From Candidatus Zambryskibacteria bacterium RIFCSPLOWO2_02_FULL_39_26 (lineage in GTDB: Bacteria; Patescibacteriota; Minisyncoccia; Phycocordibacterales; DATDWN01), in contig MHWN01000005.1 in assembly GCA_001825395.1 (NCBI GenBank), positions 1 to 55,859 of the forward strand: a stretch of DNA of 55,859 nucleotides, in the 5' to 3' direction. Below, one piece after another: positions 36,563 through 55,859 of the stretch (positions within the stretch are counted from its first letter, which is position 1; every line of letters starts with the position of its first letter). The notes beneath the pieces are model-generated. The model saw only the letters and a list, made by a program, of their open reading frames with translations. It was not told the DNA's origin and did no database searches. A program made the position numbers and the translations under genes.

Positions 36563-38503
36563 ATGAACAGAAAACGCAATGTCCAGCTGGTTCAGGTAAA
36601 CTACCAGTATGGGCAAAACGTTTTTGTCCCATACTCCGTCGGCTCGCTTCAAGCATACGCCGAAACTGTTCCAGAAATTAGGAACAGTTTCAACTTTCAG
36701 GAACCACTTTTCTTACGAGAAGATCCTGTGAGTGTCGTCCGAAACATGAAAAATCCGACGGTTGTCGGTTTCTCGTGCTACCTCTGGAACTGGGAGTACA
36801 ACACGACTCTAGCCAGAGCTGTGAGGGAAGCCTTTCCCAAAGCACTCATTGTTTTTGGAGGAACGCAGGTGCCAAACGCCTCGGATGGATTTTTCGAAAA
36901 GTATCCATGCGTGGATATTTTAGTCCATCATGAGGGTGAGTTGCCGTTCGCTGATATCCTTCAGGAGTCGCTTTCGGCAAGTCCGGACTATACCAGCATA
37001 ACGGGGTTGAGTGTCAGAGTAGAAGGGGTGGAAACCCTGAAGACTTTGTCGCGCGAGAGGGTGAAAGACTTGTCGATCTTGCCTTCGCCGTACCTTGCTG
37101 GGATCTTTGACTTTATGTTGGGACGAGGATTTTCGCTCAATGTCAGTCAGGAGACCAATCGTGGTTGCCCGTACTCTTGCACGTTCTGTGACTGGGGCGG
37201 AGCCACTTACTCCAAAATGTTTTCTATTGACATAGATCGGATTCTCGCAGAGTTCGACTGGTTCGGTAGAAACAAGGCGGAGTACTTGTTCAATTGTGAT
37301 GCCAACTATGGCATCTTGCCTCGTGATCACGATCTCACCATGAAAATGGTGGAGACTCGCGCGAGGTACAATGGATATCCGAAGAGATTTCGGATGTGCA
37401 CTGCAAAAAACAGCAACGACAAGATCTTTGAAATCGTCAAGATTCTGTCGGATGTTGGAATGAACAAGGGCGCCACGTTGTCGTTTCAGTCCATGGACGA
37501 GGGGACGCTCACGATTGTCAAGAGAAGGAACATCAAGATTACGCAGTTCTCTCACTTGATGGATCGGTACAGGGAAGCGGGGATTGCCACCTACACCGAA
37601 CTTATCTTGGCCATGCCGGGAGAATCTTACCAAAGCACCAAGGATGGCATTGACACTCTGATTGATGGCCAAGACGACAACGTCAACATCTACGTCTATC
37701 CTTGTACAGCGTTACCCAACTCGGAGATGAGTGATCCGAGATACGTTGAGGTGCACCAGATAAAGTCGGTGCGTATGCCGATTCTTCTGGCACACTCAAC
37801 CCCAGAACCGGAGTCACTAACTGAGTACAGCGAGGCGATTGTGGAGACGTCAACCATGTCCCGAGAGGACTGGTGTTGGGCGTACATGTTTTACTGGGCA
37901 GTTCAGGGGTTTCATTGTCTTGGACTGACTCAACACATCGCTATCTTCTTCCACAAGTTTTTCGGTTTGAAGTATAGCGATTTCTACGAGAAGCTTGTTA
38001 ATTACTTCACCGAGAACAAGGAAACGTTTATCGGTGAAGAAGTCGCTCTGACTTGGAACATCGTCAGAGCAGCGCAAGGCGGTGGGCGTCTAGACCGGAT
38101 TCTTCCGCGATTCGGGAATATTTACTGGCCACTGGAGGAGGCCACGTTTCTGAATCTGATTACCTACAAGGAGAAGTCTTACGGAGAGATCCGTGGATTT
38201 CTGAATGTGCTGGTGCGTGATTTGGGTCTGGGCGAGATTGATCCGGTTTTACTCGACGATGTCGTCTTGTACGCATCGTCGAGGATTATTGGTCCGAATC
38301 TTCCGCCAGTATCGATCGAGCTCCATTACAACCTGCATGAGTACTTGAGTAGGTTGCGGGATCCGTCGGTTAGGCTAGAAAAAATGCCGATGAGTCTCAC
38401 TATCAAAGCCGAGACAGATTTTGGTGGAGATCTTGAACGCTACGCTAAGGAAGTTGTGTGGTACGGCAGGAAAGGTGGAAAGTTCCACCATCCTGTTGTC
38501 TAA
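36563..38503 (+). CDS. B12-binding-domain radical SAM enzyme (class B rSAM)
   Basis: N-terminal cobalamin-domain pattern VVGFSCYLWNW...LIVFGGTQVP...HHEGELPFADIL. CX3CX2C cluster motif RGCPYSCTFCDWG. RBS GGGAAGG. About 52% GC in a hand-counted line, against 18-37% in flanking lines. Confidence 0.85.
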   Translation: MNRKRNVQLVQVNYQYGQNVFVPYSVGSLQAYAETVPEIRNSFNFQEPLFLREDPVSVVRNMKNPTVVGFSCYLWNWEYNTTLARAVREAFPKALIVFGGTQVPNASDGFFEKYPCVDILVHHEGELPFADILQESLSASPDYTSITGLSVRVEGVETLKTLSRERVKDLSILPSPYLAGIFDFMLGRGFSLNVSQETNRGCPYSCTFCDWGGATYSKMFSIDIDRILAEFDWFGRNKAEYLFNCDANYGILPRDHDLTMKMVETRARYNGYPKRFRMCTAKNSNDKIFEIVKILSDVGMNKGATLSFQSMDEGTLTIVKRRNIKITQFSHLMDRYREAGIATYTELILAMPGESYQSTKDGIDTLIDGQDDNVNIYVYPCTALPNSEMSDPRYVEVHQIKSVRMPILLAHSTPEPESLTEYSEAIVETSTMSREDWCWAYMFYWAVQGFHCLGLTQHIAIFFHKFFGLKYSDFYEKLVNYFTENKETFIGEEVALTWNIVRAAQGGGRLDRILPRFGNIYWPLEEATFLNLITYKEKSYGEIRGFLNVLVRDLGLGEIDPVLLDDVVLYASSRIIGPNLPPVSIELHYNLHEYLSRLRDPSVRLEKMPMSLTIKAETDFGGDLERYAKEVVWYGRKGGKFHHPVV

Positions 38504-53793: not shown

Positions 53794-53868
53794 GCTGCCG
53801 TAGTTCAATGGATAGAACAAGAAGTTCCTAATTTCTAAATGTAGGTCCGATTCCTACCGGTGGCACCA
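53794..53868 (+). tRNA. tRNA-Arg (anticodon CCT)
   Basis: Manual cloverleaf: acceptor GCTGCCG/CGGTGGC (two G-U pairs), D arm GTTC-AATGGATA-GAAC, anticodon arm AGAAG-TTCCTAA-TTTCT (CCT at 53827-53829), 4-nt variable loop, T arm GTAGG-TCCGATT-CCTAC, A73, encoded CCA. Confidence 0.85.
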
Positions 53869-54064
53869 AAATCTGACTTTCAGAAAATTGACCGACTTTT
53901 TCGTTGGCGGCGCACAGCGCCGCCCAAGCGTTTCCCCCCGACAAATCCTCTCCGTACAATAAATCCACAAAATTTGGCTTTTTTAGGAATATGGTATAAT
54001 CGCAGGAACGTTGATCTATAACAGTCGAATAGGTCAAATTATTCATTATATTTAATATAATATT

Positions 54065-54313
54065 ATGGGAAAAGAAATAGGCAAAATAACTCATTGGTAC
54101 GACAAAATAAATGTTGCCGTTATAAAATTAACCGGTGGAATAAAAAAGGGAGATAAAATAAAAATAAAGAAGGGAACGGAAGAAACCGAAGCCACCGTTG
54201 AGTCCCTCCAGATTGACCGAGTGGATGTTGAAAAAGGCAAGAAAAATGACGAGGTTGCCATAAAACTTTCACAAAAAGCAAAAGAGGGATCAACAGTGTA
54301 TAAAGTTGAATAG
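54065..54313 (+). CDS. translation elongation factor-like small beta-barrel protein
   Basis: 82 aa. IGKITHWYDKINVAVIKLTGGIKKGDKIKIKK... resembles EF-Tu domain 2-like stand-alone proteins. TATAAT lies 4 nt upstream of the ATG and there is no SD. Confidence 0.5.
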   Translation: MGKEIGKITHWYDKINVAVIKLTGGIKKGDKIKIKKGTEETEATVESLQIDRVDVEKGKKNDEVAIKLSQKAKEGSTVYKVE

Positions 54314-54321
54314 ATTATCTT

Positions 54322-54350
54322 TTGATTTTTTGGCTAAATTTTGCTATGAT
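54322..54350 (+). promoter_or_regulatory. sigma70-type promoter TTGATT-17-TATGAT (TGC-extended)
   Basis: -35 at 54322-54327 and -10 at 54345-54350. Drives a ~180-nt leader. Confidence 0.6.
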
Positions 54351-54536
54351 AAGCAGACCTCATTTTGAAAATAATGAGTAATATAAACTGCGAAATTTTG
54401 AGTAAGAAATAGAGAATGAGACAGGAGACGTACGCTAGTACGAGCGACTGGTGAAACTCTATTTTTTAGCGAAATTTTGGTGTTTAGATACTCAAGAAAT
54501 TCATTATTATTAATTTATTTTCAAGATGAGGTCTAT

Positions 54537-54770
54537 ATGTCACCGGAAGAAAAAGAGCTCTTGAAAAGGAGCGTGGCTTTAGCGGAAGAGAACAACGATA
54601 TGTTGCGTCGGATGCAACGCTCACTGCGCATATCGCGCTTTATAAGCATTTTATACTGGGTCTTTATTATTGGCTCTGCTGTGGGGGCATATTACCTTAT
54701 CCAGCCTTATCTGGAGTCTCTGGCGGGGGTTTATGGTAGCGCCAGTGACATCATAAATTCGTATAGGTAG
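54537..54770 (+). CDS. small single-TM membrane protein (hypothetical)
   Basis: 77 aa starting at an ATG preceded by a GAGG RBS. MSPEEKELLKRS... followed by the TM segment FISILYWVFIIGSAVGAYYLI. The ORF track extends it to 54477. Confidence 0.5.
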   Translation: MSPEEKELLKRSVALAEENNDMLRRMQRSLRISRFISILYWVFIIGSAVGAYYLIQPYLESLAGVYGSASDIINSYR

Positions 54771-54858
54771 AAAGGAAGACGTGTCAAAATGAAAAACAGC
54801 GGTTAAACCGCTGGAAGAGTGTGGAGGGAATGATAAAAGATGGTTTAATAAAAATCAT

Positions 54859-54934
54859 GCCAAGGTAACTCAGTTAGCAGAGTGCTTCCCTGAAGAGGAA
54901 GAAGTCGCCAGTGCAACTCTGGCCCTTGGCACCA
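54859..54934 (+). tRNA. tRNA-Phe (anticodon GAA)
   Basis: Manual cloverleaf: acceptor GCCAAGG/CCTTGGC, D arm ACTC-AGTTAGCA-GAGT, anticodon arm CTTCC-CTGAAGA-GGAAG (GAA at 54892-54894), variable AAGTC, T arm GCCAG-TGCAACT-CTGGC, A73, encoded CCA. Confidence 0.85.
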
Positions 54935-54935
54935 T

Positions 54936-54970
54936 AAAAACAAAACCGCTCGATGAGCGGTTTTGTTTTT
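54936..54970. terminator. bidirectional intrinsic terminator
   Basis: AAAAACAAAACCGCTC-GAT-GAGCGGTTTTGTTTTT is symmetric, with an A-tract and a T-tract. Confidence 0.85.
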
Positions 54971-55036
54971 ATGGTGTGTCTTTACGACTTCGCTAGAACC
55001 TATTTTATCAAAAATTCGTAATTGAATCCAATGTCG

Positions 55037-55199
55037 CACGCGCGGAGCGCGTGGTGGCTCTAAATTGAATTGTACGCTCCACGACGAACTCCGTCACGGC
55101 ACAGCATCCGCTCCACCAGACTGTCGGATACGACAGCCTGCTTCCGCTTCTGCTGTTCCGTGTCCGCCCTCGCTTCGCCACCACGCATTCTGTTTTGTT
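55037..55199 (+). ncRNA. candidate structured RNA module 1 (rod-like, family unassigned, strand uncertain)
   Basis: About 62% GC in a hand-counted line and no credible ORF. 10-bp long-range stem GCGTGGTGGC (55049-58) / GCCACCACGC (55177-86). Inner stems ACAGCA/TGCTGT and CAG-CTGTCG-GATA-CGACAG-CTG. U-rich tail at 55187-55200. Confidence 0.4.
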
Positions 55200-55238
55200 T
55201 GGCGGGGATTTTCTCTTTTTTTATTTTGTATGGTGGTG

Positions 55239-55421
55239 GCGGGCGAGGTCGGGTTTCTCCAAAGGAGAAACTGACGGAATTCTAAGTAGCCATTCGATGG
55301 ACTCGGTTTTGCCAAAACTATTTTTCTGGGGATTTTGATTTGGCAAAACCGAGACTGCATTTCCCGCCCGCAGAAAGGGGTCTGGGGAATGAATGCGGGC
55401 GGGGGTTTCTGTCTTGTTTTT
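55239..55421 (+). ncRNA. candidate structured RNA module 2 (multi-branched, ends in a terminator, family unassigned)
   Basis: Hairpins GTTTCTCC-AAA-GGAGAAAC (55253-71), CCAT-TCG-ATGG, and a 15-bp CTCGGTTTTGCCAAA/TTTGGCAAAACCGAG stem (55302-16/55339-53). Terminator CCCGCCCGCA/TGCGGGCGGG (55363-72/55394-403) followed by GGTTTCTGTCTTGTTTTT. Confidence 0.45.
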
Positions 55422-55482
55422 AGCGAGGTTACTAGAAAAAACCTTTTTGAGATTGAAAAATTACATAAAAAGAACTCGGGTA

Positions 55483-55859
55483 TTAAGAAATTATGTGAAT
55501 AAATTTTATATCTTTTGGATCAATAAGATTTTCAGGCAGAGCATTTATTTTATGCCATTTCCACTCTTTAAATTTTTCCGGCTCCATTAAGCAAGGTTCC
55601 TCAAAAATTTCACATTCTATAAAGTAAACTTTATCTCCAACTTTTACACCATCTTTCTGCCCAACCATTCTTATAAAATTTAATTTACTTACACCTATTT
55701 CTTCCGCTATTTCTCGCTTCAAAGTTTCAATCATTGTTTCATTAGGCTGACCACGCCCACCAGGATATGTCCACACGGGATTTCCCTTTTTGTATTCACG
55801 AAGTCCCATGAGAATCTTGTCATCTTTTTTAATCAAAGCGAAAAAACACAATTGGTCTG
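55483..55859 (-). CDS. Nudix hydrolase (MutT-like), possibly truncated by the window edge
   Basis: Canonical Nudix box GGRGQPNETMIETLKREIAEEIGV. The reading frame is still open at 55859. The only in-window start is TTG at 55851. Confidence 0.8.
   Translation of the reverse strand, partial: DQLCFFALIKKDDKILMGLREYKKGNPVWTYPGGRGQPNETMIETLKREIAEEIGVSKLNFIRMVGQKDGVKVGDKVYFIECEIFEEPCLMEPEKFKEWKWHKINALPENLIDPKDIKFIHIIS

Follow-up and report, generated by a model that had tools for sequence, protein, structure and literature searches.

Characterised serine integrases act on duplex sites of about 40-50 bp that are free of hairpins, and the targeting of transfer RNA (tRNA) 3' ends is, to our knowledge, typical of tyrosine integrases rather than of serine ones. 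Long inverted repeats around a unique segment are present in the C segment of phage P1, where repeats of 0.6 kb accompany cin, and, in a similar layout, in the yeast 2-micron circle. The attC sites of integrons, at 57-141 nt, lie in direct orientation, and a tyrosine recombinase reads one folded strand of them. SSV-type archaeal 'suicidal' integrases are reported to carry attP inside the integrase gene, and integration at a tRNA gene splits the reading frame (PMC7253208). Tycheposons are small integrase-driven elements that bring variable cargo beside tRNA genes, producing strain-variable islands (10.1101/2020.12.28.424599). The locus described here lies in a stretch of DNA of 55,859 nt (hereafter the window; GC 0.360), the gene content of which is of the Candidate Phyla Radiation (CPR)/Patescibacteria type, and it occupies positions 54972-55457, next to a tRNA-Phe gene. 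This segment is probably the left of two inverted repeats of about 0.5 kb, i.e. the P'-side non-coding end module of an integrative cassette element of the large serine recombinase (LSR) type, which is widespread in CPR/Patescibacteria.

The assignment draws on the outer edge of the module, as seen in the window and in related contigs and genome loci that were compared with it (designated by L-numbers, L001, L002 etc.). Among the matches listed, 31 copies have an LSR gene within 700 nt on their outer side, encoding an enzyme of 500-580 residues with Resolvase, Recombinase and zinc-ribbon (Zn_ribbon) domains. The family is recognisable by an invariant 22-mer (GCACGCGCGGAGCGCGTGGTGG; 55036-55057 in the window, + strand), and the approximately 45 nt that precede it encode the C-terminal tail of the LSR (..[VC]xLYxxAR[TM][YH]FxxN.., then a stop codon). 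In the window, translation and comparison with intact and partial recombinase C termini (..ARTYFxxN, then stop) identify a remnant comprising the last 14 LSR codons and the stop codon (CLYDFARTYFIKNS, then stop; 54977-55021, + strand), which constitutes the P' arm. The Arg codon of the tail varies (CGC, CGA, CGG and AGA), which argues for selection at the level of the peptide. Beyond the tail the outer boundary of the repeat family is sharp, and it falls at a short core, TGGTG, TGGCGG or TGGAG, that is the complement of the last 5-6 bases of the tRNA; the core, or crossover, of the window is TGGTG (54972-54976, + strand), the reverse complement of a tRNA-type CACCA end.

The arrangement of LSR gene, core and module differs between loci in a manner that is informative. 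In L070, L149 and L229 the order is P-core-P', i.e. un-recombined, with a co-directional LSR gene that reads through the core into the tail and hairpin; this order is preserved in remnants as well. More common is an attR-type arrangement, in which the core joins a tail-less LSR gene to a complete tRNA gene in reverse complement (12 loci by eye; ARAGORN confirms 9 of 18). The window (54972-55057) and many other loci have the attL-type order, i.e. host DNA, core, tail and hairpin. Since the LSR 3' end joins either the module or the reverse complement of a tRNA 3' end, the module can be assigned as the P' side of the attachment site. There is a second footprint in the window, at 53864-53941 (- strand), where TTGGTG joins a relic of an LSR 3' end (SGGNAWAALCAANEKVGQFSESQILV) to tRNA-Arg (53794-53868) in reverse complement. 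This is a decayed attR-type junction, which retains a GC hairpin at 53903-53921, and in the relative L113 the syntenic tRNA-Arg bears a complete element. At the other end of the LSR gene, the start codon is enclosed by the two arms of an inverted repeat of 17 bp (AAAAATTCTTTTTGTAT, comprising codons KKFFLY and their upstream complement; L036, ~1745-1810), which is also present in L043, L111, L113 and L070 (~150-320) and may be a translational or operator hairpin.

The family is large. At least 120 metagenome contigs contain the exact 22-mer, as do at least 119 species-representative genomes across CPR classes, the hosts among the matches listed spanning Saccharibacteria, Microgenomates, Peribacteria and many Parcubacteria lineages; the search of relatives and metagenomes that the first-pass annotation of this DNA had called for thus finds the region conserved. 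The same parts recur in the same order in hundreds of loci. A phage or plasmid origin was considered and rejected, there being no match in viral contigs, INPHARED phages or PLSDB plasmids.

Paired copies are what define the module as one of two inverted repeats. Among the matches listed, 10 metagenome contigs and four more genome loci carry two copies, always in the order + then -; one such pair (L168) lies in a complete Moranbacteria chromosome, CP064994. The members of a pair are 99-100% identical over 270-490 bp, with limits 49-107 nt upstream and 206-347 nt downstream of the 22-mer; between loci, the identity of copies ranges from 73 to 100% and is restricted to conserved blocks. The DNA enclosed by a pair (2.1-6 kb) is unrelated from locus to locus, with a copper ATPase, restriction-modification genes, ABC transporters and others as cargo. 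Long inverted repeats are also a property of terminal-inverted-repeat transposons and miniature inverted-repeat transposable elements, but that candidate was rejected, because no DDE-type gene was found among the cargo genes, no regular target-site duplication was present and no cargo-less back-to-back copies were seen. In the sibling samples L070 and L059 the same repeat and the same end of an ABC-transporter cargo adjoin different outer junctions, with an intact LSR gene in the one case and host genes in the other; the difference may reflect inversion isomers or an ambiguity of assembly across the repeat. Some pairs are 'solo', i.e. recombinase-less (L094, 3949-7560; L085, 1200-4082), and have a tRNA-terminator hairpin on both outer sides, so that their inverted repeat extends into host-like DNA.

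For the window itself, the pairing can be followed in sister-strain contigs, which were retrieved by means of a neighbouring 77-aa protein. Through the region, L002 and L006 have exactly the sequence of the window, and about 3.9 kb further on, just past a GT4 glycosyltransferase gene, the reverse complement of 55359-55457 reappears, with 100% identity, over 99 nt in L002 (11327-11425) and, for the part 55402-55457, over 56 nt in L006 (5521-5576). Both of these inverted copies are cut by the contig ends; that the contigs end inside the copy is understandable because assemblers stop at repeats. The left copy, IR-L, spans ~54972-55457, its inner end (55457) being given by the sister contigs and its outer end by the family boundaries. 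The left limit proposed in the first-pass annotation, 55037, was therefore too narrow, since conservation begins about 65 nt further left. The bracketed cassette consists of four genes, encoding a GT2-NUDIX fusion, a His-phosphatase-like protein, a NUDIX protein and a GT4 glycosyltransferase. The window includes the NUDIX-domain 3' part of the first of these (55483-55859, - strand; Pfam NUDIX, 1.5e-13), the full gene for the 438-aa fusion being at 7392-8708 in L002, and it contains no further copy of the module.

The junction is variable between strains. L001 and L003 are identical with the window up to the last base of tRNA-Phe (54934) and continue with unrelated genes, the 3.9-kb cassette being absent. 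A four-gene cassette with 70% identity occurs in other CPR genomes with ordinary short spacers and no module, ruling out the possibility that the cassette always travels with the module. L001 (19322-19387) and L003 (10131-10195) also reveal a further module copy in the species of the window, located downstream of tsaD and followed by an HTH gene, in which the first hairpin is a variant, GCACGC-TCC-GCGTGC, with the loop complemented. To the left of the junction, the block made up of an 82-aa gene, the 77-aa gene and tRNA-Phe (54065-54934) is 100% identical in L004, L009 and L010, and the genes upstream of it differ (peptidase S8, trypsin/SpoU and others); this block may be mobile in its own right, or its position may be a hot spot of recombination.

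Between tRNA-Phe (GAA anticodon; 54859-54934, + strand) and the module is a perfect palindrome with 22-nt arms and a GAT loop (54930-54976), which inverted-repeat and terminator scans identify as a bidirectional terminator-type hairpin. It begins with the CACCA of the tRNA 3' end, which is its left tip, and it ends with TGGTG at the element boundary, so that its right arm, the reverse complement of the tRNA 3' end and trailer, mirrors the tRNA-end attachment site. The tRNA gene is detected by ARAGORN and scores 61.6 bits with the Rfam tRNA model in a short scan, but was omitted from the whole-window Rfam scan at the gathering threshold. Directly at the boundary, 29 of 210 copies have a long perfect palindrome, compared with 1 of 210 at a control position, and half of the tRNA-adjacent copies carry such a boundary palindrome. 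The proposal that the terminator hairpin was created by insertion is weakened by the finding that, of the element-free CPR tRNA genes in the same genomes, 13 of 163 are followed by perfect palindromes with 12-25-bp arms, the left arm starting inside the tRNA 3' end (e.g. tRNA-Tyr in L056, tRNA-Arg in L104 and tRNA-His in L191), yet L001 is without the hairpin. The simplest reading is that tRNA terminators offer, on their right arm, a mirror image of the tRNA-end target, and that the cassette in the window is at such a mirror site.

The central part of the module, 55037-55421, had been singled out in the first-pass annotation as a GC-rich and densely structured region without a real open reading frame (ORF), and in these respects the description holds. 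The GC content is 0.530 compared with 0.360 for the whole window, although the proposed peak of ~62% is too high, the maximum being 0.59 per 100 nt. The only ORFs within it overlap each other and are of 41-88 codons. Both strands fold more stably than their dinucleotide shuffles (z = -4.55 for the + and -8.27 for the - strand), none of 100 shuffles being equally stable. The highest-GC kilobase of the window (0.49) is elsewhere, at 37001-38000, within a 646-aa ORF (36563-38503).

From left to right, the structured part of the module starts with hairpin H1 (CACGCGC-GGA-GCGCGTG; 55037-55053, + strand), which had been noticed as a local hairpin and which lies inside the 22-mer, with a 7-bp stem and a GGA loop. 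It is followed, in 55058-55084 (+ strand), by a variable linker of about 14 nt and then, as judged by column conservation, a conserved block, (C/T)GTACGCTC, at 55071-55079. A fast-evolving GC-rich hairpin array extends over 55085-55298, as defined by folds, by changes relative to the closest relative, L108, and by a subtype search; it comprises a rod at 55095-55162, a second rod with an AT-rich loop at 55163-55251 and an 8-bp hairpin at 55253-55271. Beyond the array are a hairpin whose stem of 15 bp is perfect (55302-16/55339-53) and whose loop is 22 nt long (..TTTCTGGGGAT..; 55302-55353, + strand) and a terminal 'G-loop' hairpin (55363-55421, + strand; stem 55363-71/55395-403, loop ..GGGGTCTGGGG..) with a T-rich tract at 55406-55421. 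The stems listed in the first-pass annotation are all present. The 10-bp stem 55049-58/55177-86, which it took to close the first part of the region, does exist, but it competes with the invariant 5' hairpin and with the rod stem 55163-83/55231-51; L108 breaks 2 of its 10 pairs and keeps that rod by way of compensatory changes.

Conservation of these helices by covariation, for which a test had been suggested, is clear where copies are numerous. Subfamily A, the commonest, provides 49 non-redundant copies with a consensus of a long-range helix that encloses a small hairpin, a rod of about 25 bp and another hairpin. Pairing is retained in 97.3% of cells, compared with 41-57% in slid controls, and there are double changes at 13 pairs (108 cells); the observed score is reached by 0 of 500 shuffles. 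The subtype of the window is, by the subtype search, common only to L108 (85% identity) and in part to L223, and the compensatory evidence for this particular subtype comes from the single comparison with L108, where one mismatch in the second rod is repaired to A-T and wobble pairs are exchanged. The 15-bp hairpin differs in stem sequence between relatives and stays similar in its loop. The terminal hairpin behaves likewise; its 24 versions include 19 different, perfectly complementary stems, around a conserved loop, GGAGGGG-N3-5-GGGGAGGAA (GAAAGGGGTCTGGGGAATGAA in the window), and in them the T-rich tract lies downstream on the + strand only. The first-pass suggestion of a terminator arm is thereby sustained, with both the terminator scan and the polarity of the 24 versions placing it on the + strand, and the terminal signature is that of a strand-specific, terminator-like RNA hairpin. 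The features of an intrinsic terminator are confined to 55363-55403 and the T-tract to 55421, i.e. to about 60 of the approximately 485 nt.

Taken together, the loci compared show the following. Before recombination, the LSR gene runs through the core into 14 more codons, followed by the invariant hairpin and GC array; after integration, the core instead joins the LSR gene to a tRNA gene in reverse complement, with the tail, hairpin and array at the other edge, beside host DNA, and a second, inverted copy of the module lies on the far side of the cargo. A complete element has the order host, core-tail-H1-array (+), cargo, array (-)-H1-tail-core-LSR C-terminal remnant, promoter, LSR gene, core and reverse complement of the tRNA. 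In the window, the module abuts the palindromic terminator of tRNA-Phe and opens the 3.9-kb glycosyltransferase/NUDIX cassette, the LSR gene for which is expected beyond the right-hand copy, outside the window. The polarity of the terminal hairpin and T-tract suggests that the module may also have a role at the RNA level. Transcription would most likely proceed in the + direction, as the 3' untranslated region of the LSR messenger or as read-through from the flank, in which case the terminal hairpin and T-tract would stop it before the cargo, and the two inward-facing terminal hairpins of a pair would insulate the cassette from transcription outside.

Several observations sit uneasily with the assignment as the end module of an LSR element. 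A canonical attP x attB recombination leaves the presence of two identical inverted copies unexplained. Where the flank is long enough to tell, approximately 85% of the copies are without a recombinase in the outer 700 nt, and the window itself, which stops partway through the cargo, contains no visible recombinase gene. The island of the window was not recovered as far as its right end, the 98% cluster representative of the cargo protein being on a contig of 1.4 kb. Not only the island but also the terminator hairpin is missing from L001 and L003, whereas simple insertion into a native hairpin predicts otherwise, and the mirror-site reading does not explain the state of L001. Finally, most hairpins of the module are without strand bias, the mismatches that interrupt helices singly being 15 G.T and 22 A.C.

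The last point bears on what the hairpins do. A serious rival to an RNA-level role, to which an appreciable if minority chance should be given, is that they act as DNA, the GC palindromes extruding as cruciforms or folding in single-stranded DNA (during replication or DNA uptake) as accessory sites for the LSR or a partner; the identity of the element would be unchanged. On this proposal the lack of bias among wobble mismatches is expected, as is the equality of fold energies on the two strands across 82 copies. Both bear too on two attempts at assigning an RNA strand that were abandoned, i.e. from the z-scores, which in the window favour the - strand (-8.3 against -4.6) but do not do so across the 82 copies, and from the wobble pairs. 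The stems are long and perfect (15-25 bp), and loops can be inverted between copies. In L185 (2351-2575) the whole apex of the long rod is inverted; the G-loop motif, GGGG..GGGG, at the apex of what the first-pass annotation termed module 1 has the complementary sequence in 45 copies and its own sequence in 16, with no copy having the two together (subfamily B copies, e.g. L018 888-1100, being included); and variants of H1 keep the hairpin with a changed loop, the GGA of most copies being replaced in a variant by its complement, TCC. Moreover, a GC hairpin is a constant feature of the LSR coding region at codons W[AD]AL[CR]A, some 110 nt upstream of the 22-mer (e.g. in L042, L070, L113 and L018), with 19 sequences among 24 flanks, i.e. 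there is covariation inside coding DNA; this hairpin and H1 lie at similar distances from the core, on its 5' and 3' sides respectively (~55 bp each). In the favoured reading, too, H1 and its coding-region mirror hairpin, flanking the crossover, would probably be an accessory structure for recombination or its control. The DNA-level proposal is countered by the strand specificity of the terminal hairpin, with its T-tract on one side only, by the hairpin-free sites that suffice for characterised serine integrases, and by the consideration that template-switch mutation can keep palindromes complementary without selection. In a stronger form of the idea, the coding-region hairpin, the 22-mer and the array with its G-rich loops would be required cofactors of recombination, recognised as folded nucleic acid (cruciform or single-stranded DNA) or acting as a transcribed RNA scaffold. 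This is unlikely, but if true it would be a mode of hairpin-dependent recombination unknown for serine recombinases, and it could explain the exchange of inverted-site cassettes between tRNA loci.

The first-pass annotation had interpreted the region as a new structural RNA, and that claim is only partly borne out. The DNA is indeed non-coding, structured, conserved and covarying, but it is a multi-copy module of a mobile element and not an RNA gene of the housekeeping type. With Rfam 15, gathering and permissive thresholds gave tRNAs only over the window and nothing above noise in 55037-55421, where the best scores are with microRNA and small RNA models, 30-70 bits under their cut-offs; neither OLE nor the families that had been named for checking (including RNase P, tmRNA, SRP, 6S, ROOL, GOLLD and HEARO) approach a gathering score, and seven other module copies match no Rfam family either. 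As to tmRNA, RNase P, SRP and 6S in particular, these were set aside because ARAGORN finds no tmRNA in the window and no covariance model matches. Nor does the module behave as an independent locus, in that the recombinase tail codons are always 5' of it, copies form inverted pairs around cargo and the junctions are strain-variable. Because most hairpins have no strand preference and some apexes are flipped between copies, a single defined RNA is not indicated. It is very improbable that the module encodes a trans-acting structured RNA, such as a guide or scaffold for the LSR analogous to the IS110 bridge RNA or the IscB/TnpB omega RNA, even though the physical linkage to a recombinase system is constant, covariation is strong, the conserved loops are purine-rich and known RNA families are all unmatched. 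A guide, in particular, finds no support in the linker, the longest substrings of which in common with the outer flank or target are no longer than in permuted controls; the junctions are accounted for by a fixed core that matches tRNA 3' ends, and the architecture diverges between subfamilies beyond position +46. Hardly credible, finally, is the alternative that had been offered to the RNA, a decayed piece of foreign DNA at a tRNA integration site, understood here as a remnant of higher GC content that has no function. Its first half was well placed, as the site is a strain-variable island beside a tRNA, a recombinase gene fragment is contained in it and another relic is present at tRNA-Arg. 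The decay is wrong because the module is conserved, with a 22-mer that is invariant across the super-phylum, stems maintained by compensatory changes, near-identical copies within loci and the same ordered parts throughout the family.

As an end module of an LSR cassette element, the region has implications beyond this locus. The genomes of CPR/Patescibacteria are tiny, and descriptions of their mobile elements are few; throughout the radiation, one element family, recognisable by its invariant 22-mer, would bring accessory cassettes to tRNA loci, the cargo of which includes glycosyltransferases, restriction-modification systems, metal pumps and transporters. In annotation, the 22-mer could mark strain-variable islands and sites at which short-read assemblies break, and for genome engineering the family may be a source of serine integrases whose type of target, the tRNA 3' end, is both defined and universal. 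For screening, the lesson is that a GC-rich, well-folding, Rfam-negative spacer in an AT-rich genome can be the end of a mobile element and not an RNA gene.

With respect to known systems, the resemblance to integron attC sites is that a hairpin and short terminal motifs are kept while the sequence turns over, at a cassette border; identity with attC was rejected given the length of the module (270-490 bp), its inverted orientation and the serine recombinase. The layout also fits the invertible segments served by Gin, Cin and Hin, but the enzyme here is of the 500-580-aa integrase type, and inversion isomers are hinted at by the one comparison of L070 with L059. As in the P1 C segment and the 2-micron circle, long identical inverted repeats bracket a unique segment, with the recombinase gene beside it and crossover sites at the repeat edges; unlike in those systems, the enzyme is a large integrase rather than a small invertase, and in place of alternative gene ends the segment contains unrelated accessory genes. 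Ecologically, tycheposons come nearest, but their recombinases are of the tyrosine type and their integration leaves partial direct repeats of the tRNA, and long structured inverted repeats are not described for them. The SSV-type integrases are similar in that integration at a tRNA divides the reading frame, here splitting off the last 14 codons. However, they are tyrosine recombinases of archaeal viruses and plasmids, the genes of which are split into two large pieces, whereas the serine recombinase here sheds a short tail and is otherwise intact. In the literature searched, no description was found of the tRNA-end target, the in-frame crossover, the covarying hairpins, the super-phylum-wide 22-mer or the duplicated inverted module.

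A further close relationship is with the established LSR elements, including those of phiC31, Bxb1, TnpX/Tn4451 and Ccr/SCCmec. The same three recombinase domains are present, the junctions are sharp with a short core, and arrangements of the attP, attL and attR types can be recognised; the enzyme and junction logic are thus those of known serine integrases. By contrast with those elements, this family targets the 3' (CCA) end of tRNA genes, its crossover lies within the reading frame of the integrase itself, its site is flanked by covarying GC hairpins and a hairpin array of 0.2-0.4 kb, and the whole module is duplicated, in inverted orientation, around the cargo.

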